DNA of 64,000 nucleotides from Oligoflexales bacterium (GTDB lineage: Bacteria > Bdellovibrionota_B > Oligoflexia > Oligoflexales > JAPPIL01): the NCBI GenBank assembly GCA_965215515.1, contig OZ244057.1, forward strand, positions 384,001-448,000, in the 5' to 3' direction. Of this stretch, positions 25,245-42,934 are shown in pieces. Positions within the stretch are counted from its first letter, which is position 1. Every line of letters begins with the position of its first letter. The notes below the pieces were generated by a model. It had not been told where the DNA came from and made no database searches. It worked only from the letters and a program-made list of their open reading frames with translations. Both the position numbers and the translations under genes were made by a program.

Positions 25245-26203
25245 GAAAAAGCTGAGTTCCTCACCCCTGCATGCATGATACAGTCGCGGCCTCTGTTTTT
25301 GGCCTGGTAGAGGAGTTCGTCGGCGGCGCGTACGAGTTCGCTGCTATCTTCTTTGGCTAGTTTGTCGCTGCCTGTGAAGGTATGGATGCCGAGGGAAGCG
25401 GTGATCCGCACTTTGAATTTGTCGAGCACGAAACGGCTGTTGCGGACGGAGTTGGCAATCCTCGTGGCCAGTGATAATGCGCCTTTGGCACTTGTGTGGG
25501 GTAGCAGGATGACGAATTCGTCCCCACCATAGCGGGCGGCGATGTCTTCGCTGCGCAGCTGTTGTTTAACCTTTGCTCCTACCTGTGCCAGCACGTACGA
25601 CCCCATGATGTGGTTGCAGGAATCGTTGACGCGTTTAAAGTGATCGAGGTCGAGCATGATGACCGAGATATCGTAGTGGTAACGGCAGGCGCGGGAGTGT
25701 TCTTCGTTGAGGCGATTGGTGAAAAAACGCATCGTGTGTAGCCCTGTCAGTTCGTCAGTGATGGTGAGGTGGGCGAGTTTTTTGTTTTCTTCTTGCAATT
25801 TTTTCTTTGACAGTGCCAGTTCGTCGGTAATTTTTTTGATGCGTAGGTTGGTTGTGATGCGAGCTTTCAGTTCTAACAGCGAACAGGGCTTAGCAAGGTA
25901 ATCGTCAGCACCTGTCGACAGTCCGACGACGAGGTTTTCCCGTGAAGAGTTGCCACTCAAAAAAATTATGGCGACGTAAGGTCCTTCTCTGGTGAGTGCC
26001 CGCATCCTGCGACAGATTTCGATGCCTGTCTGTTGCGGCATATCGACATCGAGAATGACCACGTCGGGCTTGAAAGCGACGAACAGCGTCAGCGCGGCAT
26101 CGCCGTCTTGTGCTGTCTTTACCTCGTAGTCATTGCCCAGCACGCTGAGGTAGAAAGCACAGACATCGTGATCATCATCAACTATCAGCAGTTTGTTCTT
26201 CAA
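25241..26203 (-). CDS. Response-regulator diguanylate cyclase (REC-GGDEF)
   Basis: LLIVDDD, ILDVDMP, DDYLAKP; TDELTGL, DLDHFKRVND, RSED I-site, RYGGDEF. Confidence 0.95.
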   Translation of the reverse strand: MKNKLLIVDDDHDVCAFYLSVLGNDYEVKTAQDGDAALTLFVAFKPDVVILDVDMPQQTGIEICRRMRALTREGPYVAIIFLSGNSSRENLVVGLSTGADDYLAKPCSLLELKARITTNLRIKKITDELALSKKKLQEENKKLAHLTITDELTGLHTMRFFTNRLNEEHSRACRYHYDISVIMLDLDHFKRVNDSCNHIMGSYVLAQVGAKVKQQLRSEDIAARYGGDEFVILLPHTSAKGALSLATRIANSVRNSRFVLDKFKVRITASLGIHTFTGSDKLAKEDSSELVRAADELLYQAKNRGRDCIMHAGVRNSAFS

Positions 26204-26909
26204 GTCCTGCCTGCTGCAAACGCATAACTTCGTACAGCATAAATTCTATTGCTGTAACCGAACGCACGTTAATCACGGGTGCATCGTTCTGTGCGATACT
26301 TAGCTGGAGAATTTCAGTTTGCAAAAATTCGTACAGTGTTTTCTTGTCGAGGTCGGTCTGGCTTTTCTGTCCCGCAACGACGATAGCCAGTATCTGCGCT
26401 GACAAAGTCGGGGCACGCCACTGTTGCTCACGGAAGAAAAAACGCCCCGCCTTCGTTATACTGAAATGCGGGAGATATGCAGTGATGCGTTGCCACAGAC
26501 CGTGATGATGATGGTGATTGCAGGCAGCACTTTTCCCGAGCATCTGTATTACTTTTTCCTGGTGTAATTTACGCACTGTCAGTAGCACACTGGTGGTGGT
26601 CAGGGCGAGCAGTCCCCACCTTATCTTCTGCCAGAGGGCGGCGCTGTGTGTGGCATGGTCGGCTTTGGTCTGCAGGCGCTGTTGCAGAAGTTCAAAATCT
26701 TGGCTACGCAAACCTTCGGTGTTGAGCGGTCGGCAGGCGGACAGTCGTTGTGCCGTCATCGCTGACTGTGCTTTGTAGTGGCAACGGGCAAAAAAATAGT
26801 AGCCGTCACGGTAGGTTGTTTTGATGGCGTAGTCACCACCATCGGTCAGCAGTGCGTATAGCGGCGAGGTGAGTAGCAATGTAGAAATAAAAAGTAGTGT
26901 TGTTCGCAT
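26178..26909 (-). CDS. Hypothetical secreted/membrane protein
   Basis: Signal peptide, one TM helix, His5 run. Confidence 0.55.
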   Translation of the reverse strand: MRTTLLFISTLLLTSPLYALLTDGGDYAIKTTYRDGYYFFARCHYKAQSAMTAQRLSACRPLNTEGLRSQDFELLQQRLQTKADHATHSAALWQKIRWGLLALTTTSVLLTVRKLHQEKVIQMLGKSAACNHHHHHGLWQRITAYLPHFSITKAGRFFFREQQWRAPTLSAQILAIVVAGQKSQTDLDKKTLYEFLQTEILQLSIAQNDAPVINVRSVTAIEFMLYEVMRLQQAGLEEQTADS

Positions 26910-26918
26910 GTAGGCTTC

Positions 26919-28223
26919 TCATTTTTTAGTGGTTATATTCAAGATAAAATCGTGTTCGGCAAATTTAGCGATGTGCTGTGACATAAGCGTGGTGGCGCTG
27001 ATCTGAAGGGCGAAGATGCGCTGCAAGTCAGCGAGCAGTGCTTGCAGTGAGTGTTGGGTCAATTTGGCTGGTTGCTGGAAATTGAGTAGTACCGTGTCGC
27101 GGTGACTGTTGTCGAGCACTTGTGTAATGACGATAAGTTTTTTCAGATACAGCGCTAGGGTGAGCACATCGCGCTGCAACGCACCGAGCTGTCCTTGTAG
27201 TTGGCGGTAGTTGGCGGCTGGCAGGGTGCCGTCTTGCAGGCGTGCGCCGAGATGACTGAGGTGCAAGGCGATCAGGGTTTGGGCGGCGGCGATAGTGGTG
27301 GTGACGAAATAGACCCGTCGTTGTTGCTGAGTGTGGGTGAGTTCGCGTTGGATGTTTTGCCACATCGGTGTGGTGTCGGAGTTTGTCAGCGGTTGTGTCT
27401 GTAGCAGTGCCGCGGCGATGACGGGGCGTAGTGGCGACGACAGCAGGCGTATCAGCACGGTATCGTCCAGTTCGTCAGCGATGTCTGGGGTGATATTTTT
27501 GCTGTGTACTTCTTCGCCTGCGATGTGCCAGATTCCGTGAGGAAAACGCTGCTGACTCCGCAAGGCCAGCTTGAGGCGACTGTCCAGGGTAAGCGCATCG
27601 CCGCCGAAGGTCATGCTGTGGCGGAGGTTACGGTAGAGGGTGTGGGTGAAGTTGAGGGTACCGAAGTAGGCGACTTGAAACAGCGGGCAGATGGTATGCA
27701 GCGGTCCGATGAGCATCGGCTCGATAACTCCTTCGGTGATGGCGGTGTAGGGTAGCCAGGTCAAGCCGACGAACACGGCGCTGAGGATACCGCGTTCGTG
27801 GTAGAGGCGGTGGAGAAACCCTCGTGCCCGTTGGCTGGTGTCACGCCACCAGGTGACTTGGGTCAGTTTTTTTGCGCTCTGTAGATGGGTGTGTAGTTCC
27901 TCCGTCCAGGCGTGTTGGGTACGTAGGTGATCTCGTGTTCTAGCGGTGTCGCCGTACAGGAAGCAGGCACGACAGACTTGGTAGAGGTTTGTGCCTTGCA
28001 GACGTGGTGGCACGAGGTGGGCGAGCCAGGCGTACACAGGGAGGTCGAGTACCTGTCGTTTGGTTTGTAGCTGTAGCCAGTTGGTGGCCGCGAACCAGTT
28101 GTGTTCTTGTCGGTAGGCGGCATGAATCTGTTGTAGGTCTGAGCTGAGCTGGTCGGCACTCTTTGCCAGTGCAGGTAACAACAGCAGTAGCAAGCAGGGG
28201 GGCAGTTGCATCAGTTTTCGCAA
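26919..28223 (-). CDS. Hypothetical secreted/membrane protein
   Basis: Signal-like N-terminus; internal hydrophobic segment. Confidence 0.55.
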   Translation of the reverse strand: MRKLMQLPPCLLLLLLPALAKSADQLSSDLQQIHAAYRQEHNWFAATNWLQLQTKRQVLDLPVYAWLAHLVPPRLQGTNLYQVCRACFLYGDTARTRDHLRTQHAWTEELHTHLQSAKKLTQVTWWRDTSQRARGFLHRLYHERGILSAVFVGLTWLPYTAITEGVIEPMLIGPLHTICPLFQVAYFGTLNFTHTLYRNLRHSMTFGGDALTLDSRLKLALRSQQRFPHGIWHIAGEEVHSKNITPDIADELDDTVLIRLLSSPLRPVIAAALLQTQPLTNSDTTPMWQNIQRELTHTQQQRRVYFVTTTIAAAQTLIALHLSHLGARLQDGTLPAANYRQLQGQLGALQRDVLTLALYLKKLIVITQVLDNSHRDTVLLNFQQPAKLTQHSLQALLADLQRIFALQISATTLMSQHIAKFAEHDFILNITTKK

Positions 28224-28343: not shown

Positions 28344-28397
28344 TGTAGATGCCCCCGTAGAGAGCGGACACCCTATCGTCTTCTAACAATTCACGTA
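28344..28397 (+). repeat. Dispersed IS-end-like motif, copy 3; left arm of an inverted pair with 35412-35427
   Basis: TGTAGATGCCCCCGTAGAGAGCGGACACCCTATCGTCTTCTAACAATTCACGTA. Confidence 0.75.
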
Positions 28398-28426
28398 CAG
28401 GAGTGAGGAAGCAGGGGTATAGTTCA

Positions 28427-29485
28427 CTATTCTTTTTTCAGTTCACCCCAGGTGGTGGTTTGTTTGCCTTGTGCTTTAGGGAGGGCGGCGATGCGGGCAG
28501 CGAGGCGTACCATTCTGAACTGGCGGGCAAAATCGAGGGCGGTGTACCCGTCTTTGCTCTTCAGGAAGGGGTTGATGTCCTGATGCTCGATGAGTTTAAT
28601 CACTAAGTCATCGAAGCGGTTTAGTATCGCGTGGTGCAGGGCGGTCAGACCGTCTTTATCCTGGGCGTTGATGTCGATGTCAGGATCGTACTTAAGCACC
28701 TCGAGTGCCAAGTGCTTATGTCCCTGCTTGAGTTCAAAGATCAGCGGATACTTGGGGCGACAACCCATGGGATCCTCCTCTAGTTCGTATTCAGGGAAGA
28801 AACAGTTCTCTAGCGGTAATCCTTCGTGCACATGTTTGTAGAGCCAGACGATGCCGTTGATGTCGTCTTGGCCGAGATCGCCAATCTTATTCACAAAATG
28901 TGAGTGTGAACTCATTATGGAAGCGGGCTGTGTGCCCTTAGTGCTAGGTAAACCGCCTGTGCTAGGGCCTGGCTTGCCCTTGTAGGTGTCGGAGAGACCG
29001 AAAGCATGCCCAACTTCGTGGATAAGGTTGTTCATAAAGATTGCTGTCCTCATGCCGCGACGCATGTTGATGACAGGGCGATTGTCCCTCAGTTGGGCAT
29101 TGGAGGTATCAAAATTACAGTGGAAAATGACCCGCAGATCTTCGTCGTGGGGGCGGGGAACGGCGACGCGCTGAGAGCGGAAATCTTCAACGATCGGCTT
29201 GTCAGTGTAGTCGCGCAATGGCTGCAACCAGGCACGTAAGGCTTTGCCGATGGCGGCGGTAAGTGCCTCGTCGTTATCCCTTTCCTCGGGCGGACAATTG
29301 TCACCGTAGGTATAAGCGATGTCCAGGTGCGGCGCGTGCACCTTATTGATGAGCTGACCATCAAGATTAAAACCTTCCCGCCACCAGCGATGTTGCTGCG
29401 CGATAAACTTCGTATCCGTGCTCTGCGGACGCACTATGCAGGACAATAACAACAGAGCGAACGACAAAAAAAGTGAGTGTCTCAT
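28427..29485 (-). CDS. Lipoprotein: metzincin-like Zn protease + ankyrin repeats
   Basis: LLSC lipobox; HEVGHAFGLSD and SIMS Met-turn; DINAQDKDGLTALHHA and KDGYTALDFA ankyrin repeats. Confidence 0.85.
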   Translation of the reverse strand: MRHSLFLSFALLLLSCIVRPQSTDTKFIAQQHRWWREGFNLDGQLINKVHAPHLDIAYTYGDNCPPEERDNDEALTAAIGKALRAWLQPLRDYTDKPIVEDFRSQRVAVPRPHDEDLRVIFHCNFDTSNAQLRDNRPVINMRRGMRTAIFMNNLIHEVGHAFGLSDTYKGKPGPSTGGLPSTKGTQPASIMSSHSHFVNKIGDLGQDDINGIVWLYKHVHEGLPLENCFFPEYELEEDPMGCRPKYPLIFELKQGHKHLALEVLKYDPDIDINAQDKDGLTALHHAILNRFDDLVIKLIEHQDINPFLKSKDGYTALDFARQFRMVRLAARIAALPKAQGKQTTTWGELKKE

Positions 29486-29497
29486 GAGCGTATCCTC

Positions 29498-32400
29498 CTA
29501 AGGACAGACTTCGTTACCCTGCAAGGTTTTAGCACTAGCAGCATCGCAACCGCCGACAGCACATCGATCGAGTGCTTCGAAGAGATAGGGAGTTGATTTG
29601 TCGAGAAGGCTTGGAACTGGATGACCAGGATCGTTGCCTAGTAGTTGTCTATCTATAAATTCTCTACATTCTCTGCTCATGCTACTCTTGCTTGTTGTAC
29701 CCGCATAGAAATAATCCCACCACAGTTTTTGAGAAAGAGCACCCTGGTACTGATTGCCGAAAATAATATTACTTAGTGCATCATTATTATTATAATCTTT
29801 ACAGGCTTCAGGTATCCTACCCCCTCCCCCGCCAGTAGTGAGAATGTTTTGTACCTCACCAAGCTTGAGACGACTATAGCTAGTGCAAGCGTCCATGGCT
29901 TTAATGGGGTCGTAGCAGTCGCACGTTTTGTTGCCAGGAGGCCAGGAGACAGATGCATAGCCCTCGGGGCAGGAGGGAACACATGGCTCATCTTCTTCTG
30001 GTGGTTTAGGCACGTTGCAGGTACAGTCAAACGCTAGGTACTTCCCTGAAATCGATGTTCGACTAAGATCATGCGTGCAGTTTTTTTGTGCCTCTTCGAC
30101 AGTCGGCGGGGATAAAGTGCTAGCATAGTCCTGACCAAGGGCATCACTGTAACGATACGTTTCACATTTGTTTTCGCAGGTACATGCAGCGCCCGTCGAT
30201 GAGAAGTAACCCCCTCTAGTACTTTCACAGTGACTCGTTACCTCCGCAACTTCAGTATTTTTGGCGGGAACATCGCCCCCACTATAATCAGCTGGGTAGC
30301 TAACGCTATTACAGACAGGATCAGGCGGTGTCTCTGTCGGTGTCTCTGTCGGTGTCTCTGTCGGTGTCTCTGTCGGTGTCGGTGTCTCTGGCGGAGGTGG
30401 AGGAGAGACGCTGTATTTGCAACTCCCCGTACACTTATCAGTGTCGAAACTCCAGCTCTTATCAGCCCCGCTGCAGGTGCAGCCGCCACTGTTCCACGTG
30501 CCGCTAGCTTTGGTGCAAGCAGTCTGTTCAGCATCGGAAAGACACACGCACTCGCCTGTAGAACCAACCCCGAACACAGACAGCGCCTTGTTGAGCAGGC
30601 TGAATGAAGTACGAGCAGAGAAGTTCCATACCTTCTTGGGATCAGAGCAAGTGCACTTGCACCTATTATCGTTCCAGGTTGCCTCACTCACGTTGCCGCA
30701 TGCGTTTTTCTCATTACCAGTACTATCAGGGCACTGACACGTACAAGTATTCGGATTGTATACTCTGTTCACGTATGTCGTCCCATCGCTGCTGTTGCAA
30801 TTGCAGCCACTACCATATGTAGCCTCTTCCTGACAGCTGCCGTCCCTTGTCCCATCCAAACAGGCACTCTCACACTCTCCCACTTGCACCGCCTGCCCTC
30901 CCGAGCATTCTTCTTCAGTTTCAGTAATGGGTTCTGTTGGCTGTTCTGTCTCTGACTTCTTCGCACACACGCACCTACCCACCGTCCAGGGAGTAGGAGC
31001 CGTCCAGATGACGGTGTAGTCTGAAGTTGGATTTGTACAAGGTTTAGTTTGAAGCACGCCCCCATCGCTGCAGCAGTAGTGGGTATTGTGGTTGTCCTCC
31101 TTGCATCCTTCGGGCTCCTCAGTTTCAATGGCGGAGCAGTCACACGCATCTTGGTCCAAGTCCGTGTTCCAGCTGATTGTGTATGCATCATCACAGTTAT
31201 CACCGCTGGGAATGACACCACCAGTACCTTCCTCACTGCAGCAGTAGTGGGTATTGTGGTTGTCCTCCTTGCATCCTTCGGGCTCCTCAGTTTCAATGGC
31301 GGAGCAGTCACACGCATCTGGGTCCAAGTCCGTGTTCCAGCTGATTGTGTATGCATCATCACAGTTATCACCGCTGGGAATGACACCACCAGTACCTTCC
31401 TCACTGCAGCAGTAGTTGCTCATGTTGCGCTGTCGGCATGCTTTGTTTTCAACCTTAGAAGGGCAGGGGGGACTGGTACACTCGCACTGGCAGGCAGTGG
31501 AGTTCCAGTTCGGTGTGGCAGAGGGGCAGGTGATGCCAGCCGCCGCAGCTTCTGCAGCAGTAGCATGTGGACACTCGCACTGGCAGGCAGTGGAGTTCCA
31601 GTTCGGTGTGGCAGAGGGGCAGGTGATGCCAGCTTCTGCAGCAGTAGCATATAGACACTGGCACTGGCAGGTTGTGGAATTCCATGTGTAGTTGCCAGTA
31701 CAAGACTGTGGAGCACATCCACATTGGCAGTGACTGGGAATCCAGGTGTAACCTGGAGCACAATCATCTGCGCTTTTTTTACATATACAACAATCAGGCT
31801 GACTTATATCTGTTTCCCACCCGCCAACTTTGGCGCAGGTGGTGCATGGGGGAGGTGGCGTTGGCGTTGGCGTTGGCGTTGGCGTTGGTGTTGGTGTCGG
31901 ATCAGGCGTTGGCGTTGGTGGCGTTGGCGTTGGTGGCGTTGGCGTTGGTGGCGTTGGCGTTGGTGGCGTTGGTGTTATGCAAACCTTCGTCCCTATAACT
32001 GTTACCCGCCTATTTCGTGCCTCTCTTGGACAGGGAGGCCATCCACTACAGGTTCTCGTCTGTGGTTCATATTCATATCTCGATTCGCCCTCACAAGCGT
32101 TGGGATCTGTCCTACTATCACTCACCGCAGGCTGCCAAGGAGTACATCCGCATCTCCTACAGCAGCCCTTATTAGGGGCACTATCATTGAACGTCCCCCA
32201 CCACCCGTTGCAGGTTAAGCTAAATGTATTAGCCACCTCGGTATTACCATCACAGCACTGTGTTGTCGGATCACATGGTGGCGGAGGCGGTGGTGTTGGT
32301 GTTGGCGGCGGCGGCGGAGGTGGTGCCCCTAAGCCTGCGGGGCAGTACTTGGTGATGTTGCGGCAGACCGTGGGCTTGGCATCGCGCAACGCCATCCTCA

Positions 32401-32899
32401 CCGCATCACCCCGCGTATAGTCACACTCCTCGCTCCCCCCGCCATGACAATCGGGATAAATATACCTGCCCTCAGCATCGGCATAGGCAAAGGCAACCGC
32501 AACATTACCAGGACGCAACTGATAAAAATAACGTAACTGTCCACAGGCTTGCGGACGGAAACCCAAACGGTTATTCAACCCCAGATCGCGATCATCGGCG
32601 TAGTCCCCACAATCACCCCTAGTACCGTCCTCATTCTTGTAGCCGATACCACCATCAGGGGCGAGCAACGCGGAGCCACTATAGTAATTACCGTGCTCGA
32701 CTTTATACATATCTTGTAAGGTGGCCAGGTGGGCGAGATTGCTCTTCGCCTCCCCCCGCCGTGCCTGCGCCAAGAAAGCATGATAACGCGGCACTGCCAA
32801 GGCGACCAAAATGCCGATAATCGCCACCGCGACCATCAACTCCACCAAACTTAAACCCGCCTTCGTCCGCACCACTTCCCTTTTTTTGGCTAAAAACAA
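29498..32899 (-). CDS. Giant type IV pilin-like protein with Pro-rich and Cys-rich repeat extension
   Basis: Class III signal KAG|LSLVELMVAVAIIGILVALAVPRY..RRGEAKSNL, followed by ~940 aa of Cys/Pro/Thr-rich repeats; start may be a GTG near 32872. Confidence 0.85.
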   Translation of the reverse strand: MFLAKKREVVRTKAGLSLVELMVAVAIIGILVALAVPRYHAFLAQARRGEAKSNLAHLATLQDMYKVEHGNYYSGSALLAPDGGIGYKNEDGTRGDCGDYADDRDLGLNNRLGFRPQACGQLRYFYQLRPGNVAVAFAYADAEGRYIYPDCHGGGSEECDYTRGDAVRMALRDAKPTVCRNITKYCPAGLGAPPPPPPPTPTPPPPPPCDPTTQCCDGNTEVANTFSLTCNGWWGTFNDSAPNKGCCRRCGCTPWQPAVSDSRTDPNACEGESRYEYEPQTRTCSGWPPCPREARNRRVTVIGTKVCITPTPPTPTPPTPTPPTPTPPTPTPDPTPTPTPTPTPTPTPPPPCTTCAKVGGWETDISQPDCCICKKSADDCAPGYTWIPSHCQCGCAPQSCTGNYTWNSTTCQCQCLYATAAEAGITCPSATPNWNSTACQCECPHATAAEAAAAGITCPSATPNWNSTACQCECTSPPCPSKVENKACRQRNMSNYCCSEEGTGGVIPSGDNCDDAYTISWNTDLDPDACDCSAIETEEPEGCKEDNHNTHYCCSEEGTGGVIPSGDNCDDAYTISWNTDLDQDACDCSAIETEEPEGCKEDNHNTHYCCSDGGVLQTKPCTNPTSDYTVIWTAPTPWTVGRCVCAKKSETEQPTEPITETEEECSGGQAVQVGECESACLDGTRDGSCQEEATYGSGCNCNSSDGTTYVNRVYNPNTCTCQCPDSTGNEKNACGNVSEATWNDNRCKCTCSDPKKVWNFSARTSFSLLNKALSVFGVGSTGECVCLSDAEQTACTKASGTWNSGGCTCSGADKSWSFDTDKCTGSCKYSVSPPPPPETPTPTETPTETPTETPTETPPDPVCNSVSYPADYSGGDVPAKNTEVAEVTSHCESTRGGYFSSTGAACTCENKCETYRYSDALGQDYASTLSPPTVEEAQKNCTHDLSRTSISGKYLAFDCTCNVPKPPEEDEPCVPSCPEGYASVSWPPGNKTCDCYDPIKAMDACTSYSRLKLGEVQNILTTGGGGGRIPEACKDYNNNDALSNIIFGNQYQGALSQKLWWDYFYAGTTSKSSMSRECREFIDRQLLGNDPGHPVPSLLDKSTPYLFEALDRCAVGGCDAASAKTLQGNEVCP
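30327..30390 (-). repeat. 12-nt tandem repeat (TETP)
   Basis: ggtgtctctgtc units. Confidence 0.85.
31068..31416 (-). repeat. 168-nt (56 aa) tandem duplication within the pilin
   Basis: Copies start at 31068 and 31236 (partial at 31404); one visible substitution (DPD/DQD). Confidence 0.92.
31478..31685 (-). repeat. 93/84-nt repeats encoding CxCxC modules (WNSTACQCEC)
   Basis: Copies start at 31478, 31571 and 31655. Confidence 0.88.
31855..31975 (-). repeat. (PT)n/(PTP)n linker microsatellite
   Basis: ggcgtt/ggtggcgtt iterations. Confidence 0.9.
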
Positions 32900-32923
32900 A
32901 ACTTTCCCGCGCGAACACCATCG

Positions 32924-33051
32924 GCGTTTTTTTTTTCACTTTAGTTACGTTGCCAAAACCCCCAAATTACAGTTGTCTGCCTGCAATATTGCGGGAGAGA
33001 GGGAAGATGGGGCGCTGCCCCATACCCCGCACAACTTTTTGAAAAAAGTTG
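32924..33051. repeat. ~125-bp direct repeat block, copy A (upstream of the pilin)
   Basis: Matches 33872-33996 and 35287-35411; hairpins ATGGGGC-GCT-GCCCCAT and CAACTTTTT..AAAAAGTTG. Confidence 0.92.
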
Positions 33052-33206
33052 GTACAGAAACTTAATTAACCTCAGGGGGTTGGAGCAGTTGTTTGATTTT
33101 GCCGTGTGATTTTATCTTAGCGGTGAGCAGAAAATTTTTGCTGTCGTGGCTGTGCTATCTACGGCAAGCAGTGCCTGCTGGCACTTGCACAGCATCGAGC
33201 TGTTTG

Positions 33207-33395
33207 CTAGCTGCAATTAAGAGTGCGCTTAATGTCGGCCAGCTCCTCTCCGCTGAGCTGTATAACGTCACAAATCTGCTCGTCAGGCATACCTTTCGCC
33301 AGCATCCGAGCGACAACATCCCGCTGCTTCCGTTCGATACCCTGTTCGATACCACGCCTCTCCGCCTTGTCAAGACTGAATTCTATCGTGGGCAT
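33207..33395 (-). CDS. Putative internally translated Rpn C-terminal small protein (RpnS-type), 62 aa
   Basis: GAGGAGGAG RBS then ATG: MPTIEFSLDKAERRGIEQGIERKQRDVVARMLAKGMPDEQICDVIQLSGEELADIKRTLNCS. Confidence 0.6.
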   Translation of the reverse strand: MPTIEFSLDKAERRGIEQGIERKQRDVVARMLAKGMPDEQICDVIQLSGEELADIKRTLNCS

Positions 33396-33786
33396 AAGTC
33401 TCTCCTCCTCACGTAGACCTGGCCAATACTCCCGCTCAATGCGATCAAACTCACCCCTCCCAAACCCCCCATCGGTATATTCATAGTAGTCCGTTAGCGG
33501 AATCATCACAATACCCCTGTGCACAGCTGGAATCTCACGCGCTTTCCGCAACAGCAACGCCACATCTTCTTCCGTCGCACGCCAAAAACGGCGAATAGCC
33601 TCGATAACTACCCCCGTAGATTCAGCCCGACGCAAAACACTGTCCGACAGTTTGTGCAGATTTATGATTTTACAGAAAAAATTAGGATTGAGATGTGACA
33701 GCGACTGCACCGCCGCAGGTATCTCCCCCCTCCTATTCCTGAACACCCAAATGTGGATGGCCAGCCTGCAGTTGCCTACCCCGCAT
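33207..33786 (-). pseudogene. Internally deleted, frameshifted copy of the Rpn gene
   Basis: Near-identical to 34152-35201 but lacks the 374 nt equivalent to 34792-35165; the native ATG gives MRGRQLQAGHPHLGVQE*. Confidence 0.88.
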
Positions 33787-33871
33787 TCCCCTTTGCTCTC
33801 CAGCCACAAACCTATCTCCCCAAATCAAATAACTAATTAGCAAGGTAGCACAAAGAAACATGGAGACTCTA

Positions 33872-34151: not shown

Positions 34152-34436
34152 CTAGCTGCAATTAAGAGTGCGCTTAATGTCGGCCAGCTCCTCTCCGCTG
34201 AGCTGTATAACGTCACAAATCTGCTCGTCAGGCATACCTTTCGCCAGCATCCGAGCGACAACATCCCGCTGCTTCCGTTCGATACCCTGTTCGATACCCT
34301 GTTCGATACCCTGTTCGATACCCTGTTCGATACCCTGTTCGATACCCTGTTCGATACCCTGTTCGATACCCTGTTCGATACCACGCTCAACACCACGCCT
34401 CTCCGCCTTGTCAAGACTGAATTCTATCGTGGGCAT
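34152..34436 (-). CDS. Putative nested RpnS-type small protein, 94 aa
   Basis: In-frame internal ATG preceded by GAGGAGGAG; includes GVER(GIEQ)8GIER. Confidence 0.6.
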   Translation of the reverse strand: MPTIEFSLDKAERRGVERGIEQGIEQGIEQGIEQGIEQGIEQGIEQGIEQGIERKQRDVVARMLAKGMPDEQICDVIQLSGEELADIKRTLNCS

Positions 34437-35201
34437 AAGTCTCTCCTCCTCACGTAGACCTGGCCAATACTCCCGCTCAATGCGATCAAACTCACCCCTC
34501 CCAAACCCCCCATCGGTATATTCATAGTAGTCCGTTAGCGGAATCATCACAATACCCCTGTGCACAGCTGGAATCTCACGCGCTTTCCGCAACAGCAACG
34601 CCACATCTTCTTCCGTCGCACGCCAAAAACGGCGAATAGCCTCGATAACTACCCCCGTAGATTCAGCCCGACGCAAAACACTGTCCGACAGTTTGTGCAG
34701 ATTTATGATTTTACAGAAAAAATTAGGATTGAGATGTGACAGCGACTGCACCGCCGCAGGTATCTCCCCCCTCCTATTCCTGAACACCCAACTGTTGTAG
34801 TCACTAGGAGGAGCGAAATTCTCGTCCTCGCAACACAGCAAAACGATAGGAATGACGATGCCACCTGTGCGACGACACAGTTCCGTGTGGTACTCCTTGA
34901 TCTGTAGAAGAACATCGTTTACCCTATGCGCCTTGAACTCAAAAACTATGCAGATGGTTAGCGGCGGCTCACCTGCATCGCCTTTGAGATCGACAGAGAC
35001 GACAAGATCAGGGCGGCGACTCTTGCCTGCAATATCCCTCGCTTCGCTCTCATCGATGCGCACCCTAGTTAAGTCTAACACCTCTAACTCTGCCTCGGTG
35101 AAGCTTAGCGCCACAATTTCTTGCACAAATTCTTTATTTTTGTAGATCTTTTGAAAGATGGCATCATGTGGATGGCCAGCCTGCAGATGCCTACCCCGCA
35201 T
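34152..35201 (-). CDS. Rpn-family (YhgA-like) PD-(D/E)XK nuclease
   Basis: PHDAIFQK, RRPDLVV..VFEFKAH, IVIPIVL; C-terminal (GIEQ)n repeats then ARML.KGM..EQI...QLS. Confidence 0.88.
   Translation of the reverse strand: MRGRHLQAGHPHDAIFQKIYKNKEFVQEIVALSFTEAELEVLDLTRVRIDESEARDIAGKSRRPDLVVSVDLKGDAGEPPLTICIVFEFKAHRVNDVLLQIKEYHTELCRRTGGIVIPIVLLCCEDENFAPPSDYNSWVFRNRRGEIPAAVQSLSHLNPNFFCKIINLHKLSDSVLRRAESTGVVIEAIRRFWRATEEDVALLLRKAREIPAVHRGIVMIPLTDYYEYTDGGFGRGEFDRIEREYWPGLREEERLMPTIEFSLDKAERRGVERGIEQGIEQGIEQGIEQGIEQGIEQGIEQGIEQGIERKQRDVVARMLAKGMPDEQICDVIQLSGEELADIKRTLNCS
34277..34382 (-). repeat. 12-nt tandem repeat (GIEQ)x8
   Basis: gttcgataccct units; the deleted copy has only one GIEQ. Confidence 0.95.
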
Positions 35202-35286
35202 TCCCCTTTGCTCTCCAGCCACAAACCTATCTCCCCAAATCAAATAACTAATTAGCAAGGTAGCACAAAGAAACATGGAGACTCTA

Positions 35287-35444: not shown

Positions 35445-36563
35445 TCAATCGTCAAACTTAGGATTAATAGGGGTCTCGTGCGGTGTTTTGACAAATGACC
35501 CCATAGCACGACCCACTACGTGGGCGGCAACAATCACAGGAATAATTATGCCGAACCTCGCCGCACTCTTCCCAAGTCGTGTAGCACTCGGTAAGGCTGT
35601 GTCTCCTTTGCCAAAAACCCTGCGCATCCACGCAGCTACACCTTCAGCTCTCCTGTCTAGCCATTTCGTCAGACGCGTACTTTCTTTGCCCGCCAACTTT
35701 TTTCCTCTATCTATCATACCATTGGCAGCAAAAATAGAGGCTGCCAAGTACGTACCGAAAGCGGGAAACAAAAGGGCATACGAACTTCTGACATCTTCAC
35801 TAGCTCCGTGCTCCGCAGTAAATTCAAATGCCTTCCCCGTTGCTACTGCTTCTTGATAGAGCTGTATGGGGAAAAAGAATCTTCCCAATGTATATAGGCC
35901 AGGACCAAGCCCCTTTTTCTGTTTTTCAGAAAAATCTATCGCGTGACCAGCTTCATGGAGAGCAAGATCCAAGTTATCAGAGTAGAGTACCACGGTGTCG
36001 GCAAAAGGGTTGTAGTGATCACCCATCCCATACAGCAACCGCCCTGGCATTACCGTATAGATCAAAGCATTCATTGTCCCTAGAGTGAGCTTAGTTAGAA
36101 CAGATGTTTTGTCGTTTCTAAAGGTGCGTTGCCAGATTATTTTTGGATTATATTCATTGACAGATACGTGTGTGCTCGCCGAGTCTCCATCGGCAAGAGC
36201 TAATCTTACCGCCTTTTCCGCATCTTCATGCAACTCACCAGAACCGACGGTGCGATTCCAAAGCAATAGCTTTTGGGGCCAAGAAAAGAAACTACGCAGT
36301 GCATCGACGATCTTATTCTCCTTACCTCGGGTTACCAGCACCTCATGCAGTTTTTCCTCCAGCTGAGGGTCATTTTGAAGACGCTTTTCGATCTCATTAT
36401 CAGAATCTTGCGTCAACAGCACAACCTGCCTAGCTACAGGCTGACCTTGATCTTTGGTTGCGACACTAGGGGAAAACACCTGCCCTTGGCGCACAAGTGG
36501 CTTGCATGCAGTGGCAAAAAAGACAAAGACCAGCACCCATTCCTTCGTAACCCAGCTTCCCAT
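35445..36563 (-). CDS. Lipoprotein with HExxH zinc-metallopeptidase motif and C-terminal hydrophobic helices
   Basis: FATAC lipobox; LALHEAGHAID followed by YQEAVA. Confidence 0.65.
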   Translation of the reverse strand: MGSWVTKEWVLVFVFFATACKPLVRQGQVFSPSVATKDQGQPVARQVVLLTQDSDNEIEKRLQNDPQLEEKLHEVLVTRGKENKIVDALRSFFSWPQKLLLWNRTVGSGELHEDAEKAVRLALADGDSASTHVSVNEYNPKIIWQRTFRNDKTSVLTKLTLGTMNALIYTVMPGRLLYGMGDHYNPFADTVVLYSDNLDLALHEAGHAIDFSEKQKKGLGPGLYTLGRFFFPIQLYQEAVATGKAFEFTAEHGASEDVRSSYALLFPAFGTYLAASIFAANGMIDRGKKLAGKESTRLTKWLDRRAEGVAAWMRRVFGKGDTALPSATRLGKSAARFGIIIPVIVAAHVVGRAMGSFVKTPHETPINPKFDD

Positions 36564-37625: not shown

Positions 37626-40319
37626 TCAGTTGCTTGCCGTGGCAGGACGGCGATGCTTTTTGCGTAGTAACTGAAGTTTTTCCGTCCAAATAACAAACGA
37701 ACTGGCGACGAAAGTTGAAGACAACGTTGCGATCAACACCCCTAAAGCCATTGCCATAGCAAAGTTCCAAATCTGCCCTGTGCCAAAAATCAAAATGCCA
37801 CTCAAGGCAAGCAGCGTTGTCACCGACGTGTTGATGGTGCGGGATAGAGTTTCATTGAGCGAAGTGTTGATGTTCTGTCGTAAATCACGCTTGGCATGAG
37901 TAAGTAAATTCTCCCGAATACGGTCGTAAATAACGATAGTGTCATTTACCGAATAACCGACAACGGTTAAGAAGGCTGCCACTGAAGTTAAATCAAAAGT
38001 GCGGCGGAAGAAAATATAAAAACCCAGCATAATGAAAATGTCCATTGTCATCTTGACCACCGCACCTGGTGCAAAACGCATGTCGAAACGAAACCCAATG
38101 TACAGCAAAACCCAAAAAATCGCATAGATAACCGACAACATACCTTGATTGCGTAACTCCGCACCTATTTGCGGCCCGACAAAATCCGCCTGCAATACCT
38201 CTGGTTGATGAACTTGCAAGTTACTCAGCAACGCCTCTTGGAATTCCTTGTAGTTGCGTGTCGCATCCTCTTGCCTGCTGTCGAAACGCAACAGATACTG
38301 CGTCTGCCCGCCTTCTAGTGCTTGGATCGAGACGTTGCGCAAACCACTGGTAGTAGCTGACTCCCGTATTGTGGTGGCAGACACATCGTTGGCAAAACCC
38401 AGCCGCATCTCCATTCCGCCTGCGAAATCAACACCCCAATTGACTCCGCTGATTGCTCCCGTGCCGAGCACGGATACGCCCAGCACAAGTGCGATGCCGA
38501 CAGCAAGACGGGCAGGCTTGAGAAAATTAAAAACTGTCTTCTTATCGCCCAAAACCTTGCCCGACAAAATCCAATGACGCAGCTGTGTGTCAGAATTCAT
38601 ACGGGCAACCACCGCAGCAAAAATCGCTCGTGAACAGTAGAGTGAGGTGAACATAGAGACAATCAAGCCGAGAATCAAAGTCACCGCAAAACCCTTAATC
38701 GGCCCTGAACTGTTCGTTTCAATCAATACGATTGCAGCAATCAAAGTCGTGACGTTGGCATCGACAATTGTCCAGAAGGCTTTTTGAAAACCATTACTTA
38801 CTGCATTCTTGGCATTGCGTCCTTCCCGTAACTCTTGGCGAATGCGTTCGTTAATCAAAACATTGGCATCGACCGCCATCCCCAAAGTCAGAATAAAACC
38901 CGCGATACCAGGCAATGATAACGCAAAACCAAAACTCGCCATCATCGCTAAGAGCAGAACGCCATTCAATAACAAGGCAAGGCAGGCGATCACTCCTGTG
39001 CGGCGGTAGAAGATGATCATAAATAGGAACACCAAACCCAATCCTAACAAGACACCCAGCACACCTTGATTGGCAAGCTCAGGGCCAAGACTTGCCCCGA
39101 CCTGTCGTTCCTCCATCACCTCGATCCTGGCGGGCAGTGCCCCCGACTTGAGAATAAGCGAGAGGTCGTTCGCCTCCTCCAGAATTTCATTGTAGCTGCG
39201 GCCGCTGCCAAGCGTGATGGAGGCTCGTCCCCCAGCAATTTTTTGCTGTATAACAGGGGCTGATTCAATCAAACCATCGAGCACGATGGCCATGCGTTTC
39301 TTGACATTGTTGCCTGTCACCGCGGCAAAACGCCGTCCGCCAGGGCCTGTGAAGCGCAACAGAACTTCAGGAGTGCGGTCGATGTTGTCGCCTTGCCCTA
39401 CCTGTGCATCGAGTACATCTTCGCCACCGACATCCGACTGAGGAAAAACTACCCACGAAGTAAAACGCGACTGTTTGCCACCTGCCATGACTTCACGCTG
39501 GAAAAGTAACTCACGATCATCAGGTACCGCGGGCTGCAAAAATTCACGCAGCACCTCCTGATCGTAAGAAGTGAAGGCCAACTGGCTGCCAGATTCATCG
39601 ACCAGCTCAACACCCTCAGGTAAATTGTTCTTGAGTCGATCGAAGCCTGTGAACTCATCATCGACAATCTGAAACTTCAACTGCGCCGTGCGTCCCAACA
39701 ACTCCTTTGCTTTTTCGGGATTCTTAAAACCAGGCAACTGCACCAAAATCGAGCCGTCAACACGTCGATTGATAACGGGCTCGGTCACACCCCACTTGTC
39801 GATACGGTTGCGTACCACCCGCTCGGCTTGCTCAAGGGCACTGTTCTTGATACGTTCCAGTTCGTCTTCCTCAAACTGAAAATCAAGATAATTATCGCCT
39901 CGCCCACTCTGCCTGAGACCAGGGTACTCCTTGCGCAGCTTGCCGCTGAGGTTAGCAGGCTGCTCGCCCTGCCACTCAACTCGTAGTGCCTGCCGTTGTT
40001 TGAGCGCACGCGCCGACTGCAATCCCAGCTTCTCAGCTTCGCTCCAACGCATAACCTCCGCAGCTAGTCGCCCAATCTTGTTCGCGACCGCCTCGCCTAC
40101 CGTCACCCCCAAGACCAGCTGCACCCCTCCCTGTAAGTCGAGGCCGAGCTTGACATGCTTGCGCGGCAACCACTGCGGGACACGTTTTTGAAATTCGGCA
40201 TCGTCGTTGCGAATCTCCTTCGGCAAGCTGAAATAAATAAGCGAGGGGGCGACGGCATACACGCCAAGTACAGCCAGACACGTTATGAACAACAACTTTC
40301 CCTTGAGCGCAGCAGACAT
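37626..40319 (-). CDS. secDF: Fused protein translocase SecDF
   Basis: LGLDLQGG, RNRIDKWGVTEP, VGASLG, GMAVDANVLINERI, GVDFAGG, GYSVNDTIVIYDRIRE. Confidence 0.97.
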   Translation of the reverse strand: MSAALKGKLLFITCLAVLGVYAVAPSLIYFSLPKEIRNDDAEFQKRVPQWLPRKHVKLGLDLQGGVQLVLGVTVGEAVANKIGRLAAEVMRWSEAEKLGLQSARALKQRQALRVEWQGEQPANLSGKLRKEYPGLRQSGRGDNYLDFQFEEDELERIKNSALEQAERVVRNRIDKWGVTEPVINRRVDGSILVQLPGFKNPEKAKELLGRTAQLKFQIVDDEFTGFDRLKNNLPEGVELVDESGSQLAFTSYDQEVLREFLQPAVPDDRELLFQREVMAGGKQSRFTSWVVFPQSDVGGEDVLDAQVGQGDNIDRTPEVLLRFTGPGGRRFAAVTGNNVKKRMAIVLDGLIESAPVIQQKIAGGRASITLGSGRSYNEILEEANDLSLILKSGALPARIEVMEERQVGASLGPELANQGVLGVLLGLGLVFLFMIIFYRRTGVIACLALLLNGVLLLAMMASFGFALSLPGIAGFILTLGMAVDANVLINERIRQELREGRNAKNAVSNGFQKAFWTIVDANVTTLIAAIVLIETNSSGPIKGFAVTLILGLIVSMFTSLYCSRAIFAAVVARMNSDTQLRHWILSGKVLGDKKTVFNFLKPARLAVGIALVLGVSVLGTGAISGVNWGVDFAGGMEMRLGFANDVSATTIRESATTSGLRNVSIQALEGGQTQYLLRFDSRQEDATRNYKEFQEALLSNLQVHQPEVLQADFVGPQIGAELRNQGMLSVIYAIFWVLLYIGFRFDMRFAPGAVVKMTMDIFIMLGFYIFFRRTFDLTSVAAFLTVVGYSVNDTIVIYDRIRENLLTHAKRDLRQNINTSLNETLSRTINTSVTTLLALSGILIFGTGQIWNFAMAMALGVLIATLSSTFVASSFVIWTEKLQLLRKKHRRPATASN

Positions 40320-40539
40320 CTCGACAAACCCCCGCGGTGATAGAAGCACAAACCGTGAAGCCTCCTTGTACCGCTAAGCACACAGTAGTTAAAGACAAAA
40401 GTGCCCCCAGCCCCAGAACCCCAACCCCACGATATGATCGGGATGCAAGAAGCTAAACCCTTTTTCGATACCATGGCTTGTATTCGCCCCCCCATGTATG
40501 CGAACATGCACGACACTGCGTGCTTGCAACGAGAGACGA

Positions 40540-41601
40540 ATGCCCGAGCTGATCACCGCCCGCAAAGAACAACACATCGACCTCTGCATAAACCGCGATG
40601 TCGAAGCAAGCGAGCACAACACAGGTTTCGAACAGGTATGCTTCCTCCCCCGCACCCTACCCGAGCTTGCCTGGGACGACCTCAATATCCACACCAAAAT
40701 GTGGGGTCGCACCTTCTCCGCACCCTTCATCATCAGCGGTATGACCTTCGGTATAGAACGCAGCACCACCATCAACCGTAACCTTGCCCGCTGCGCCGCA
40801 CACCACAACATCCCCCTAGGAATCGGCTCGCAACGCATCGCTCTCGAACAACCTGACCTCGTCCAAAAAAATAACCCCCGCCACCATGCCCCCGATATCT
40901 TTCTGCTCGCTAACCTCGGCATCTCACACCTACACCGCGATCTCTGCCTGCGGGCGGTGGAAATGATCGAAGCAAACGCCCTCGCTATCCACCTCAACGT
41001 CATGCAAGAGCTCATCCAACCCGAAGGTAGCCGCAACTTCCACGGTATCCTGCAAAAATTACACGATCTGACACAAAATTTTCCCGTGCCAATCATCGTC
41101 AAAGAAGTTGGTTTTGGCCTCGATGTACAAACGGCAACACACCTCCACGCAAGCGGTATCGCCGCACTGGACGTAGGCGGCAAAGGTGGTACGTCATGGA
41201 GCTGGATAGAAGGACTACGCAGCGACGATCCCGCAACATACCAATTGGCGCAAACATTCCGTAACTGGGGTATCCCTACCGCCTACAACACCGCAATGCT
41301 GCGCGTCGCCCTACCACATTGCCCCATACTAGCCACAGGCGGCATACGCGACGGCTTGATGGCTGCAAAAGCACTAGCACTCGGCGCAAATATGGTCGGC
41401 CTCGGCTTGCCCCTGCTGCAAGCAGCAACAATCAACGAAGAAGAAGTGATCAAAGTTATGGACAACTTCATCAAAGGACTGAAAATTACCATGCTAACCA
41501 CAGGCAGCAGCAACATAAACGAACTAACACCCTCACTCCACCTCACCGCACCCTACCACCACGAATTCATAAACCTCATGAAGCGGGGAAAAGGGGAATG
41601 A
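40540..41601 (+). CDS. fni: Type 2 isopentenyl-diphosphate isomerase
   Basis: RKEQHI, ISGMT, GSQR, HLNVMQELIQPEG, IVKEVGFG, GGTSW, WGIPT. Confidence 0.95.
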   Translation: MPELITARKEQHIDLCINRDVEASEHNTGFEQVCFLPRTLPELAWDDLNIHTKMWGRTFSAPFIISGMTFGIERSTTINRNLARCAAHHNIPLGIGSQRIALEQPDLVQKNNPRHHAPDIFLLANLGISHLHRDLCLRAVEMIEANALAIHLNVMQELIQPEGSRNFHGILQKLHDLTQNFPVPIIVKEVGFGLDVQTATHLHASGIAALDVGGKGGTSWSWIEGLRSDDPATYQLAQTFRNWGIPTAYNTAMLRVALPHCPILATGGIRDGLMAAKALALGANMVGLGLPLLQAATINEEEVIKVMDNFIKGLKITMLTTGSSNINELTPSLHLTAPYHHEFINLMKRGKGE

Positions 41602-41620
41602 AGGGAGAGAAGAGGAGAAA

Positions 41621-42856: not shown

Positions 42857-42934
42857 AGACGCACTAGCGAGGTTTTGTTTGACAACCATACGCCGTCTGT
42901 CCTACGCTGCCCCCTCTACCTCTTTGGTTGACAG

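Follow-up and report, generated by a model that had tools for sequence, protein, structure and literature searches.

Type IV pili are among the commonest bacterial surface machines, and the gain of many binding functions by one fibre is a wider theme. A 2021 survey of modular pilins covers more than 1,200 proteins in 264 architectures and argues for display at the pilus tip; in PilB (vWA module) and PilC (lectin module) of Streptococcus sanguinis, a class III pilin module is followed by a linker and one or more C-terminal modules thought to be shown at the tip for adhesion (PMC8179133). The locus described here lies in a window of 64,000 nucleotides (nt) from an Oligoflexales bacterium (contig OZ244057.1). 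It contains a reverse-strand open reading frame (ORF) for a giant prepilin of the same general layout: a pilin head, a Pro-rich linker and then about 925 residues of Cys-rich modules. Coordinates are positions in this 64-kb window, and amino acids (aa) are counted from the TTG start, unless stated otherwise.

The giant pilin differs from the described modular pilins in size; its mature form has 1118 residues (about 1190 in a paralogue), compared with 860 for the largest in the text of the survey (PMC8179133). Unlike the S. sanguinis-type proteins, it has a tail without a known domain family and a fixed protease-like partner gene. Those pilins are single genes in a pilus operon; here there are 12 recombining paralogues with a shared promoter.

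In Vibrio cholerae, the large tip minor pilin TcpB docks TcpF, a secreted partner that depends on the pilus. The CofB/CofJ pair of enterotoxigenic Escherichia coli is also comparable to the present locus, as a large minor pilin with extra C-terminal domains and a partner encoded nearby (PMC8179133 for CofB). CofB and TcpB are type IVb, in-operon and single-copy; here, pilin and partner are linked by adjacency.

The Neisseria pilE/pilS system has a constant N-terminal and a variable C-terminal pilin part, varied by gene conversion between one expression locus and silent, promoter-less partial copies. The giant pilins share with it the constant N-terminal part, the variable C-terminal parts and gene conversion among many copies. 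In contrast to pilE/pilS, all 12 intact copies are full length with promoter, leader and head, and there are just two truncated remnants. It is also the constant part that is homogenised here, and whole modules are exchanged.

In Mycoplasma hyorhinis, the length of a promoter poly-A tract switches each vlp gene, and internal repeats vary the size of the product (PMC10502178). The giant pilins are likewise a surface multigene family with a poly-A tract in the promoter of each gene; they differ from Vlp in protein class, in anchor and in their sigma-28-type promoter, and switching is here proposed from sequence. The MAT fibres of Bdellovibrio bacteriovorus, a predator from a related lineage, form a 21-member family with varied C-terminal binding domains on a common scaffold and serve in prey recognition (PMC10769870). 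Varied C-terminal ends on a shared scaffold are common to both families; however, MAT fibres are phage-tail-fibre-like trimers rather than pilins, and no sequence relation was found. In the Bdellovibrio attack phase, FliA drives cell-surface proteins and proteases (PMC3627812). The PilY1/PilC tip adhesins are comparable as large pilus-tip adhesins with variable modules, but PilY1 does not belong to the pilins and is carried by minor pilins (PMC8179133).

Taken singly, the components of the present system belong to known kinds: a modular pilin, a gene-conversion family, a homopolymer switch and a metzincin. What appears to be new is their combination, together with the protein size and modules that fall in no described class. 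Nothing on such pilins was found in the full-text literature, in a search that leaves most subscription journals outside and excludes supplements. If the readings given below are true, the family comprises modular pilins of more than 1100 residues made from unclassified disulfide modules, a genome repertoire with a homogenised anchor and business ends shuffled at linker joints, and a sigma-28 promoter with a mutable homopolymer spacer in an organism that has FliA but in which flagellin and FlhA were not found. As far as the literature search reached, these three features have not been described together. Two further protein groups emerge from the locus: a new family of small Cys-rich modules, and bacterial lipoproteins that are matrix metalloproteinase (MMP)-like and carry ankyrin repeats.

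A family of twelve giant pilins

The window lies in a closed one-contig genome of 2,180,710 bp with a completeness estimate of 93.9%. A motif scan of all frames in this genome finds 12 giant prepilins with 576-1191 residues past the cleavage motif, and two truncated copies with the same leader. A head profile finds 12 open frames of 612-1211 aa, one copy with two TGA stops and one short fragment. The preliminary description of this locus, made from the sequence of the window, had looked ahead to paralogues with the same head and different tails; the 12 intact giant pilins are such a set. Together with their partner genes they occupy about 48.6 kb (2.2%) of the genome. Given this share, the system probably has a central part in the encounter of this uncultured lineage with its host or prey.

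The architecture is also found in other genomes. An order-wide head profile (95 genomes; best 150 of 232 matches) gives at least seven giant head-bearing frames in three related genomes, two of the same genus (four and two frames) and one of a sister genus (one frame). A database of 1.84 billion representatives contains 42 matching proteins at E<=1e-30, and 47 of the best 150 database matches have at least 450 aa with 5.7-10.7% Cys. Synteny between the diverged copy p1343k and the rpoC-adjacent copy of a sister genome is limited to pilin and partner.

The fusion of head and tail is not a one-off assembly error. The preliminary description had named a stop or a misassembly between the two as the weak point; the fusion holds in the 12 paralogues, in the frames of the relatives and in the 47 database proteins. 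Contigs from four public runs were compared with the locus: two of the runs cover 30 of 30 bins, in pieces of up to 1089 nt at 100% identity. No contig in the four runs bridges head to tail; this is explained by the repeats, which fragment contigs. Runs from two other studies, labelled with other organisms, give pieces of 151-318 nt at 100% identity (window 28400-33200) and a head piece with 38 differences in 629 nt. These pieces suggest that cassettes circulate in related strains or other contexts.

At G000:C1:~2171200-2172600 (-), the family promoter (A9) stands behind a partner gene, and just the initial 31 codons of a giant pilin come after it. This remnant is read as a decayed or replaced family member. 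It runs into genes which, by eye, we take to resemble hicA/hicB toxin-antitoxin genes.

Pilin head and pilus machinery

Sequence and predicted fold both support the giant protein as a type IV pilin. The ORF at 29498-32899 (-) is real and intact, as the preliminary description had it, and its 1133 aa make the protein about seven times the usual pilin size, which agrees with the remark that it is far too large for an ordinary pilin. It has 96 Cys (8.5%), six in the head and 90 in the tail. The prepilin signal consists of a basic leader ending in Gly15, a cut before Leu16 and a hydrophobic helix with Glu20 (+5). The motif first noticed (G15/L16-S-L-V-E20) is supported by matches above the cut-offs of Pfam N_methyl (PF07963; 23.4 bits, cut-off 21.2) and TIGR02532 (21.5 bits, cut-off 16.3). 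Translation probably starts at the second GTG (window 32872), which leaves a leader of 6 aa; this start is favoured because database gene calls of four paralogues begin there and the leaders of relatives have 4-11 aa.

AlphaFold2 (AF2) was run on an alignment of 60 family members and returned a 1124-residue model with a mean predicted local distance difference test (pLDDT) score of 48. The head scores 66-95 and is modelled as one long helix (9-60) with a four-stranded sheet (strands 116-171). A head was claimed in the preliminary description and is present; its size was overstated at about 190 aa, the mature part being aa 16-189, or about 174 aa. In the VIA structure search against 48,161 solved chains, ranks 1-13 are without exception pilins or pseudopilins (Z 7.5 to 5.4), and all of these matches fall on model residues 1-186. 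PilV matches with Z 7.5 and a root-mean-square deviation (rmsd) of 2.7 over 88 aligned residues; PilA of Myxococcus xanthus matches with Z 7.4 and rmsd 3.4 over 119. The M. xanthus PilA is also the closest solved relative by sequence (8tj2_C, E 6.3e-9). Foldseek with the whole 1124-aa model gives no match at E<=0.001; its top four entries are pilins.

The preliminary description had made its proposal depend on a prepilin peptidase and on machinery of a type IV pilus or type II secretion system (T2SS) in the genome. Both are present, so this test leaves the proposal standing. The genome encodes a prepilin peptidase (Peptidase_A24, at G000:2163506), eight T2SSE ATPases with PilB-, PilT- and GspE-like members among them, three secretins, two PilC/GspF-type proteins with two T2SSF domains each, PilM, and a T2SS with its own pseudopilins. 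Five pilins of ordinary size with related heads are also found by the head profile. Pilus machinery is absent from the 51 window ORFs scanned, as had been noted for the neighbouring genes; the giant pilin gene is at least 110 kb from the pilus gene clusters. A DsbA-like gene, mentioned in the preliminary description as a possible aid to folding, exists at window 17546-18625 (+) (PF01323, E 1.5e-18). PilY1 (PF05567) has no match here; the control found it in no genome, and the result is uninformative.

Homogenised heads and mosaic tails

The giant pilin gene is a mosaic of blocks shared with different paralogues, as seen by BLASTN of the gene and its flanks against its own genome. The head is 92-99% identical at the nt level in 11 other copies (10 intact paralogues and a pseudogene). 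Along its length, the gene has cassettes in common with different paralogues at 88-99% nt identity. The block with p1915k that begins 150 codon-equivalents upstream runs to aa 331 (98.7%), and a second block with the same paralogue covers aa 651-909 (94%). Blocks with p1871k cover aa 348-449 (95%), aa 551-841 (92%), and the stretch from aa 965 through 870 nt of the next (partner) gene (90%). The region aa 352-649 is 83-97% identical at the nt level to p1871k, p240k and the pseudogene (G000:1599142-1600343).

The majority of block ends lie in the four linkers between modules; the exceptions are at aa 420, 449, 558, 787, 904 and 909. Six copies (five intact, one pseudogene) have a block in common with this gene that stops at aa 203-209. 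Around linker 2, blocks end at aa 308-345 and the next ones start at aa 348-349; around linker 3, the p1915k and p1038k blocks start at aa 651 and 659.

Synonymous differences (pS) separate the history of the head from that of the partner gene. Over 55 pairs of 11 close copies, the median pS is 0.084 in the head vs 0.753 in the partner, which lies no more than a few kilobases further downstream. Between the giant pilin and p1915k, pS is 0.000 in the head and 0.800 in the partner; these are old duplicates with alike 5' ends, which indicates gene conversion. With p1871k the values are 0.134 and 0.122; this reverse pattern, at the 3' end, indicates that the gene is a recombinant. Giant heads in the sister genomes are mutually only 50-62% identical (six pairs among four of six heads, since the head-cutting motif missed two), and head homogenisation is therefore special to this genome.

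The ratio of nonsynonymous to synonymous differences (pN/pS), based on small counts throughout, rises along the gene. For aa 206-331 it is 0.08-0.31 with three paralogues and 0.67 with a fourth; for aa 551-908 it is 0.80-0.95; for the C-terminal domain compared with p1871k it is 1.08, and 10 of 10 Cys are kept. In the shared blocks, Cys is conserved at 123 of 123 positions (24 of 24 in the aa 652-908 block with p1915k), compared with 45-94% of other residues. The pattern fits a disulfide scaffold in which loops and tip are free, or driven, to change. The 'variable tip' of the preliminary description thus gains far stronger support, from the mosaic tails and the rise in pN/pS, than could be seen at the time.

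Tail modules

The tail is a disulfide-type modular stalk, as first proposed, and most of its described elements are real. The W-N-x3-C-x-C pattern occurs five times in strict form. The duplicated 56-aa module is a tandem repeat (aa 497-552 and 553-608; window 31076-31411) with 98.9% identity over 184 nt at an offset of 168 nt. Linkers of poly-Pro and (PT)n type are present at aa 191-208 and aa 308-351, and two more P/T/E linkers were found; all four are Cys-free, with Cys-rich modules in between. A separate C-terminal domain (aa 973-1133) recurs in two paralogues (p1871k, 72%; p1602k, 45%) and in three other giant pilins (P0019, P0034 and P0052).

Membership of the tail in the TSP1 or CXCXC families, which the preliminary description had drawn from its Cys patterns, is unsupported. 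Pfam TSP_1 and CXCXC have no match in the giant pilin at E<=1, in the 11 paralogues at E<=0.1, or in any of 60 family members at E<=0.01; N_methyl is found in 52 of the 60 in the same scan. The segment CTPWQP..QTRTC that prompted the comparison with TSP1 is indeed present, in aa 251-307, the sole part of the tail that AF2 models confidently, with three long strands. Its Foldseek matches to TSR-type entries (pleiotrophin N-domain, properdin twice, BAI1; ranks 11, 13, 48 and 49) are non-significant, at E 2.4-4.8. The VIA matches of aa 251-307 are weak (Z 2.1-2.7) and fall on G5/E domains, sclerostin, VEGF-F and IL-17; TSR entries do not appear at Z>=2.

The tail had also been called eukaryote-like; no eukaryotic relative was found, in sequence searches of limited reach. 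A protein atlas search with aa 960-1133 and aa 218-335 gave no usable match. A word-based search with aa 375-960 returned just three proteins, all from the same genome, and a comparison of the C-terminal domain with longer proteins returned one paralogue of its own genome and nothing else. No toxin family in Pfam matches any of the tails.

Promoter and poly-A tract

About 95 nt upstream of the gene are conserved in all close copies. This region contains CTAAAG, a poly-A tract and GCCGAT in 13 close family copies (11 intact and two truncated); p240k has GACGAT, and the diverged copy p1343k has a degenerate form. In the present copy, CTAAAG is followed by 13 nt (TG, A10, C) and GCCGATGG; copies with A11 have 14 nt. 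The fliC promoter of Pseudomonas aeruginosa has -35 TCTAAAG and -10 GCCGATAA, 14 nt apart (PMC12784957), and 92 of 140 Bdellovibrio attack-phase promoters have TTAAG-N16-CCGATA (PMC3627812). The sigma-28 consensus used here comes from these two sources and so from P. aeruginosa and Bdellovibrio. By this consensus, the giant-pilin promoters would be sigma-28 dependent.

The tract differs in length between the copies. It is A11 in four copies, A10 in five including this gene, A9 in three (two intact genes and the promoter of the 31-codon remnant) and A8 in the two truncated copies. Nine of the 24 A/T runs of at least 10 nt in the genome are tracts before giant pilin genes. An A9-A10 tract in the same layout is found at three of seven loci of relatives, from two genera. 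In contigs of two public runs, the site at 32926/32927 has forms with one nt more (three in each run) and one nt less (four in each), with flanks common to the A9 and A11 paralogues.

The genome encodes FliA (G000:C1:1447257-1447928; TIGR02479, 274.6 bits, cut-off 189.6); flagellin and FlhA were not found at the estimated completeness. The pattern TAAA-N12..16-GCCGAT occurs 74 times in the genome vs 18.1 +/- 4.3 in shuffles. Among the 60 non-pilin sites, 20 of the 35 with N15-16 lie outside ORFs of at least 200 aa, which cover 84% of the genome, vs none of the 17 with N12 or N14; N15-16 is therefore likely to be the working spacing in this organism. Three family copies with an A11 tract (p1488k, p1915k and p1947k) have N15. 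The present gene has N14, 1 nt short of the spacing at the other intergenic sites, and so do three further GCCGAT copies and p240k (hand count, GACGAT variant). Slippage of the tract could thus switch the family on and off copy by copy. The roughly 20 intergenic N15-16 sites outside the pilin family, together with FliA in a genome without a detected flagellin or FlhA, suggest a re-purposed FliA regulon.

Two other promoter types were considered for the conserved upstream element. A scan finds no sigma-70 site in it, and sigma-54 was rejected by eye, as there is no GG/GC pair at the proper spacing. The same promoter core (CTAAAG, A10, GCCGATGG) also stands at G000:C1:2088615 (-), before an unrelated small gene with a signal-peptide-like start.

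Partner gene

A homologous same-strand gene of 352-563 codons follows 12 of 12 giant pilins and the pseudogene. Behind the intact genes it begins after -100 to +99 nt, behind the pseudogene after about 1.1 kb. The partner is also present behind six of six giant pilins in two sister genomes; in a further genus a single case could be assessed, and there a Cys-rich frame truncated at the contig end finishes 4 nt ahead of the partner. Among 131 genomes of the class, the N-terminal domain of the partner is found in all four of the one taxonomic family that also has the giant pilins vs none of the other 127 at E<=1e-15; there is one weak extra match at E 1.1e-14. C-terminal type and partner clade mostly coincide, with the exception of p1915k, which has a type-B end and a partner of another clade.

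The partner has a lipoprotein-type signal, four invariant Cys and ankyrin repeats that vary in number between copies. A metzincin motif, HExxHxxGxxD with a Met-turn, is conserved in 74 partner sequences: E157, G159, H160, G163 and M191 are invariant, and H156 and D166 occur in at least 90%. In Pfam, only ankyrins score above the cut-off; Peptidase_M10 (matrixin) falls below it (18.3 bits vs 24, E 0.0023), and DUF4953 'Met-zincin' equals its cut-off at 24.2 bits in the partner of one paralogue. The predicted structure (pLDDT 79.5) points to a metzincin, MMP-like fold for the catalytic domain. Its best Foldseek matches include MMP-7 (E 3.6e-5, TM-score 0.54), and MMP-7, -2, -9, -3, -13, -12 and -10 all match at E 3.6e-5 to 2e-4 with probability 1.00 and target TM-scores of 0.51-0.57; ankyrin proteins match as well. 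The family has 462 members in metagenome data at E<=1e-5, where its present label is just 'ankyrin'.

Two partner paralogues (G000:C1:1486522-1488213 and 1564826-1566463 (-)) end in what we take, by eye, to be two dockerin-like Asp/Gly repeats. Both also have a tail of about 80 residues that presumably resembles a C-terminal sorting domain of the type IX secretion system.

Proposed mechanism and alternatives

On balance, and with moderate confidence, the giant pilins are read as phase-variable, recombining, pilus-displayed modular adhesins. Prepilin peptidase would process a normal pilin head, which would then bring the protein into a type IV pilus, most probably in few copies or at the tip. 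The string of about 940 residues, made of disulfide-bonded modules and Pro/Thr linkers, would hold the variable C-terminal domain off the cell as an adhesin. Gene conversion would keep promoter, leader and head nearly identical among the copies, and recombination, mostly in linker-coding DNA, would shuffle tail cassettes and C-terminal domains; as a consequence, the genome would carry a repertoire of tips on one common anchor. Slippage of the poly-A tract (8-11 A) would set each copy singly to a working or a non-working promoter spacing. Possible roles of the partner lipoprotein are processing of the pilin and an action on the surface that the pilin targets. Both pilus display and the host mimicry that the preliminary description had proposed are inferences.

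Several points weigh against this reading. In the structure search the head is as similar to major pilins as to minor ones, so that a tip location is argued by analogy. The secretin would have to let through a tail of about 100 kDa. The tail shape and the C-terminal fold are not resolved in the AF2 model, in which 754 of 1124 residues have pLDDT below 50. A pN/pS near 1 could reflect relaxed constraint instead of diversifying selection. Partner homologues occur without an upstream pilin at six of nine further loci in relatives. The promoter assignment is a motif match, and the spacing in relatives is 13-14 nt after the -35 box, so that A10 might work too. The differences in tract length are between paralogues and not within one locus, and the contig indels cannot be assigned to a copy. 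Finally, the sequence would fit a target in a prey envelope and one in the matrix of an animal or protist host alike.

A more specific form of the adhesin reading is possible but doubtful. In this form, a non-flagellated organism with a small genome would keep a 'pilus-tip wardrobe' of 12 converted anchors with FliA promoters, linker-shuffled tails and poly-A switching of each copy by itself, sigma-28 having been recruited from flagellar control to surface variation. Each expressed pilin would bring its own MMP-like protease, and the cell would both grip and cut the matrix or envelope of its eukaryotic host or its prey.

The partner gene is central to an unlikely alternative, in which the head is just a carrier that exports the tail through the piston action of a type IV pilus or a T2SS-like system, after which the MMP-like lipoprotein would release it as secreted matrix, holdfast or soluble factor. 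A metzincin gene stands behind every giant pilin, its motif is conserved and its predicted fold is MMP-like; as a lipoprotein it would sit in the envelope, and the genome has a T2SS with its own pseudopilins. However, no cleavage site is known, Pro/Thr linkers are usually protease-resistant, and partner homologues are also found without a pilin. The variable, Cys-conserving C-terminal domain with pN/pS near 1 suits a ligand-binding tip at least equally well.

It is rather improbable that the giant pilins are envelope-resident, fixed by their alpha-1 helix in the inner membrane, with a periplasmic tail, and never part of a fibre. Twelve mosaic copies with homogenised heads, a distal pN/pS near 1 and individually variable promoters are expected of exposed surfaces under selection and not of proteins in the periplasm, and Glu+5 and the full pilin fold are retained. 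This has to be set against the many prepilin-type proteins that are not known to reach fibres, and against the distance of the gene from the pilus clusters.

The similarity of the head to the M. xanthus major pilin PilA, by sequence and over 119 residues of structure, would suit a major subunit; one expressed giant pilin would polymerise into a thick, brush-like fibre. This is improbable, since the genome has five normal-sized pilins with related heads, a tail of about 940 residues on each subunit would not fit the secretin channel, and known modular pilins are minor subunits (PMC8179133).

Polymorphic toxin loci have a similar layout, with a constant N-terminal part, exchangeable C-terminal domains and a gene directly downstream. 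On this model the pilus would deliver the C-terminal domains as toxins or effectors, and the product of the next gene would protect against them or mature them. The general agreement of C-terminal type with partner clade is in line with this. Nevertheless it is very unlikely: the partners are one family with a protease motif and not diverse immunity proteins, p1915k combines a type-B end with a partner of another clade, and the tails match no toxin family.

That the family is an artefact, a misassembled or decaying set of repeats not translated as one protein, is hardly credible: unbridged head-tail junctions and two truncated members would agree with it, but one closed contig contains 12 open frames, each of 612-1211 aa, three other genomes and 47 of the best 150 database matches repeat the architecture, the Cys in shared blocks are fully conserved, and pN/pS is well under 1 near the head.

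Feature layout and neighbouring genes

The positions of the giant pilin, its promoter and its partner are collected in Table 1; the layout comes from a ruler print and a composition rule applied to the translated ORF.

Table 1. Features of the giant pilin locus (window positions; modules and linkers in order from the head)
Feature	Position	Strand	Evidence or remark
CTAAAG box, read as -35 of a sigma-28 (FliA)-type promoter	32939..32944	-	conserved across the family and in relatives of two genera
Poly-A tract, A10 here, promoter spacer	32927..32936	-	8-11 A in 14 family copies
GCCGATGG, read as -10 of a sigma-28-type promoter	32918..32925	-	motif match
Giant prepilin ORF	29498..32899	-	1133 aa from TTG, stop codon included; no internal stop
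Leader peptide, 6 aa, Gly at end; predicted prepilin peptidase cleavage before L16	32855..32872	-	sequence
Mature pilin head, aa 16-189: alpha-1 helix, Glu +5, beta-sheet, 6 Cys	32333..32854	-	AF2, structure match
Linker 1, Pro-rich, aa 191-208	32276..32329	-	edge of homogenised head block
Cys-rich module, C..TQCC...W.G....CC pattern, aa 209-250	32150..32275	-	recurs in paralogues and database relatives; not confidently modelled
Three-stranded Cys module ('TSP1-like' segment), aa 251-307	31979..32149	-	AF2 pLDDT 72-84
Linker 2, (PT)n, aa 308-351, recombination joint	31847..31978	-	composition; shared-block ends
CxC-type modules, aa 352-649	30953..31846	-	include 3 of 5 W-N-x3-C-x-C units and the tandem 56-aa repeat
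Linker 3, T/E/P-rich, aa 650-664	30908..30952	-	composition
Cys-rich block, aa 665-830	30410..30907	-	nt identity: p1915k 94%, p1871k 92%, p1038k 89%
Linker 4, (ETPT)n and Pro, aa 831-862	30314..30409	-	p1871k block ends at aa 841
Pre-terminal Cys module, aa 863-972	29984..30313	-	common with p1915k only to aa 909
C-terminal domain 'type A', aa 973-1133, putative tip or ligand-binding end	29501..29983	-	recurs solely at giant-pilin ends
Partner gene, 352-aa lipoprotein, MMP-like metzincin domain and ankyrin repeats	28427..29485	-	13 nt downstream of giant pilin

Upstream of the giant pilin lies a YhgA/Rpn-like gene (PF04754) at 34152-35276 (-), with a tandemly duplicated 3' fragment at 33207-33809. 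The full gene and the fragment are each followed by a copy of the pilin upstream element; this tandem repeat measures about 945 bp at 98.6% identity. A four-residue repeat has eight units in the full copy and one unit in the fragment. PF04754 has 18 matches in the genome, of which three are upstream of giant pilin loci (this one, p1915k and p240k). A role for these nucleases as drivers of cassette exchange is only an idea, and nothing ties them to it.

Directly after the stop codon of the partner gene, a 61-nt element (28344-28404) is found that recurs at 14 or more other sites in the genome with 88-94% identity and has the look of a terminator or of a dispersed repeat of the REP-like kind. 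Immediately beyond the partner are two ORFs (243 and 434 aa; 26178-28223 (-)) that match no Pfam family; the 434-aa product has a signal-peptide-like start. On the other side of the locus, a 372-aa ORF at 35445-36563 (-) has no Pfam match and contains an HExxH motif; it may encode another metalloprotease.

The low-GC end of the window (0.42-0.46 vs about 0.54) carries an SspA-SspB-SspC phosphorothioation set at 58253-63965 (+), identified by PADLOC with E 1.9e-95, 4.7e-67 and 2.1e-143, respectively. The region 37626-44077 encodes a fused SecDF of 907 aa, and an HMG-CoA reductase gene beside a gene for an FMN-dependent dehydrogenase; the latter two hint at a mevalonate pathway.

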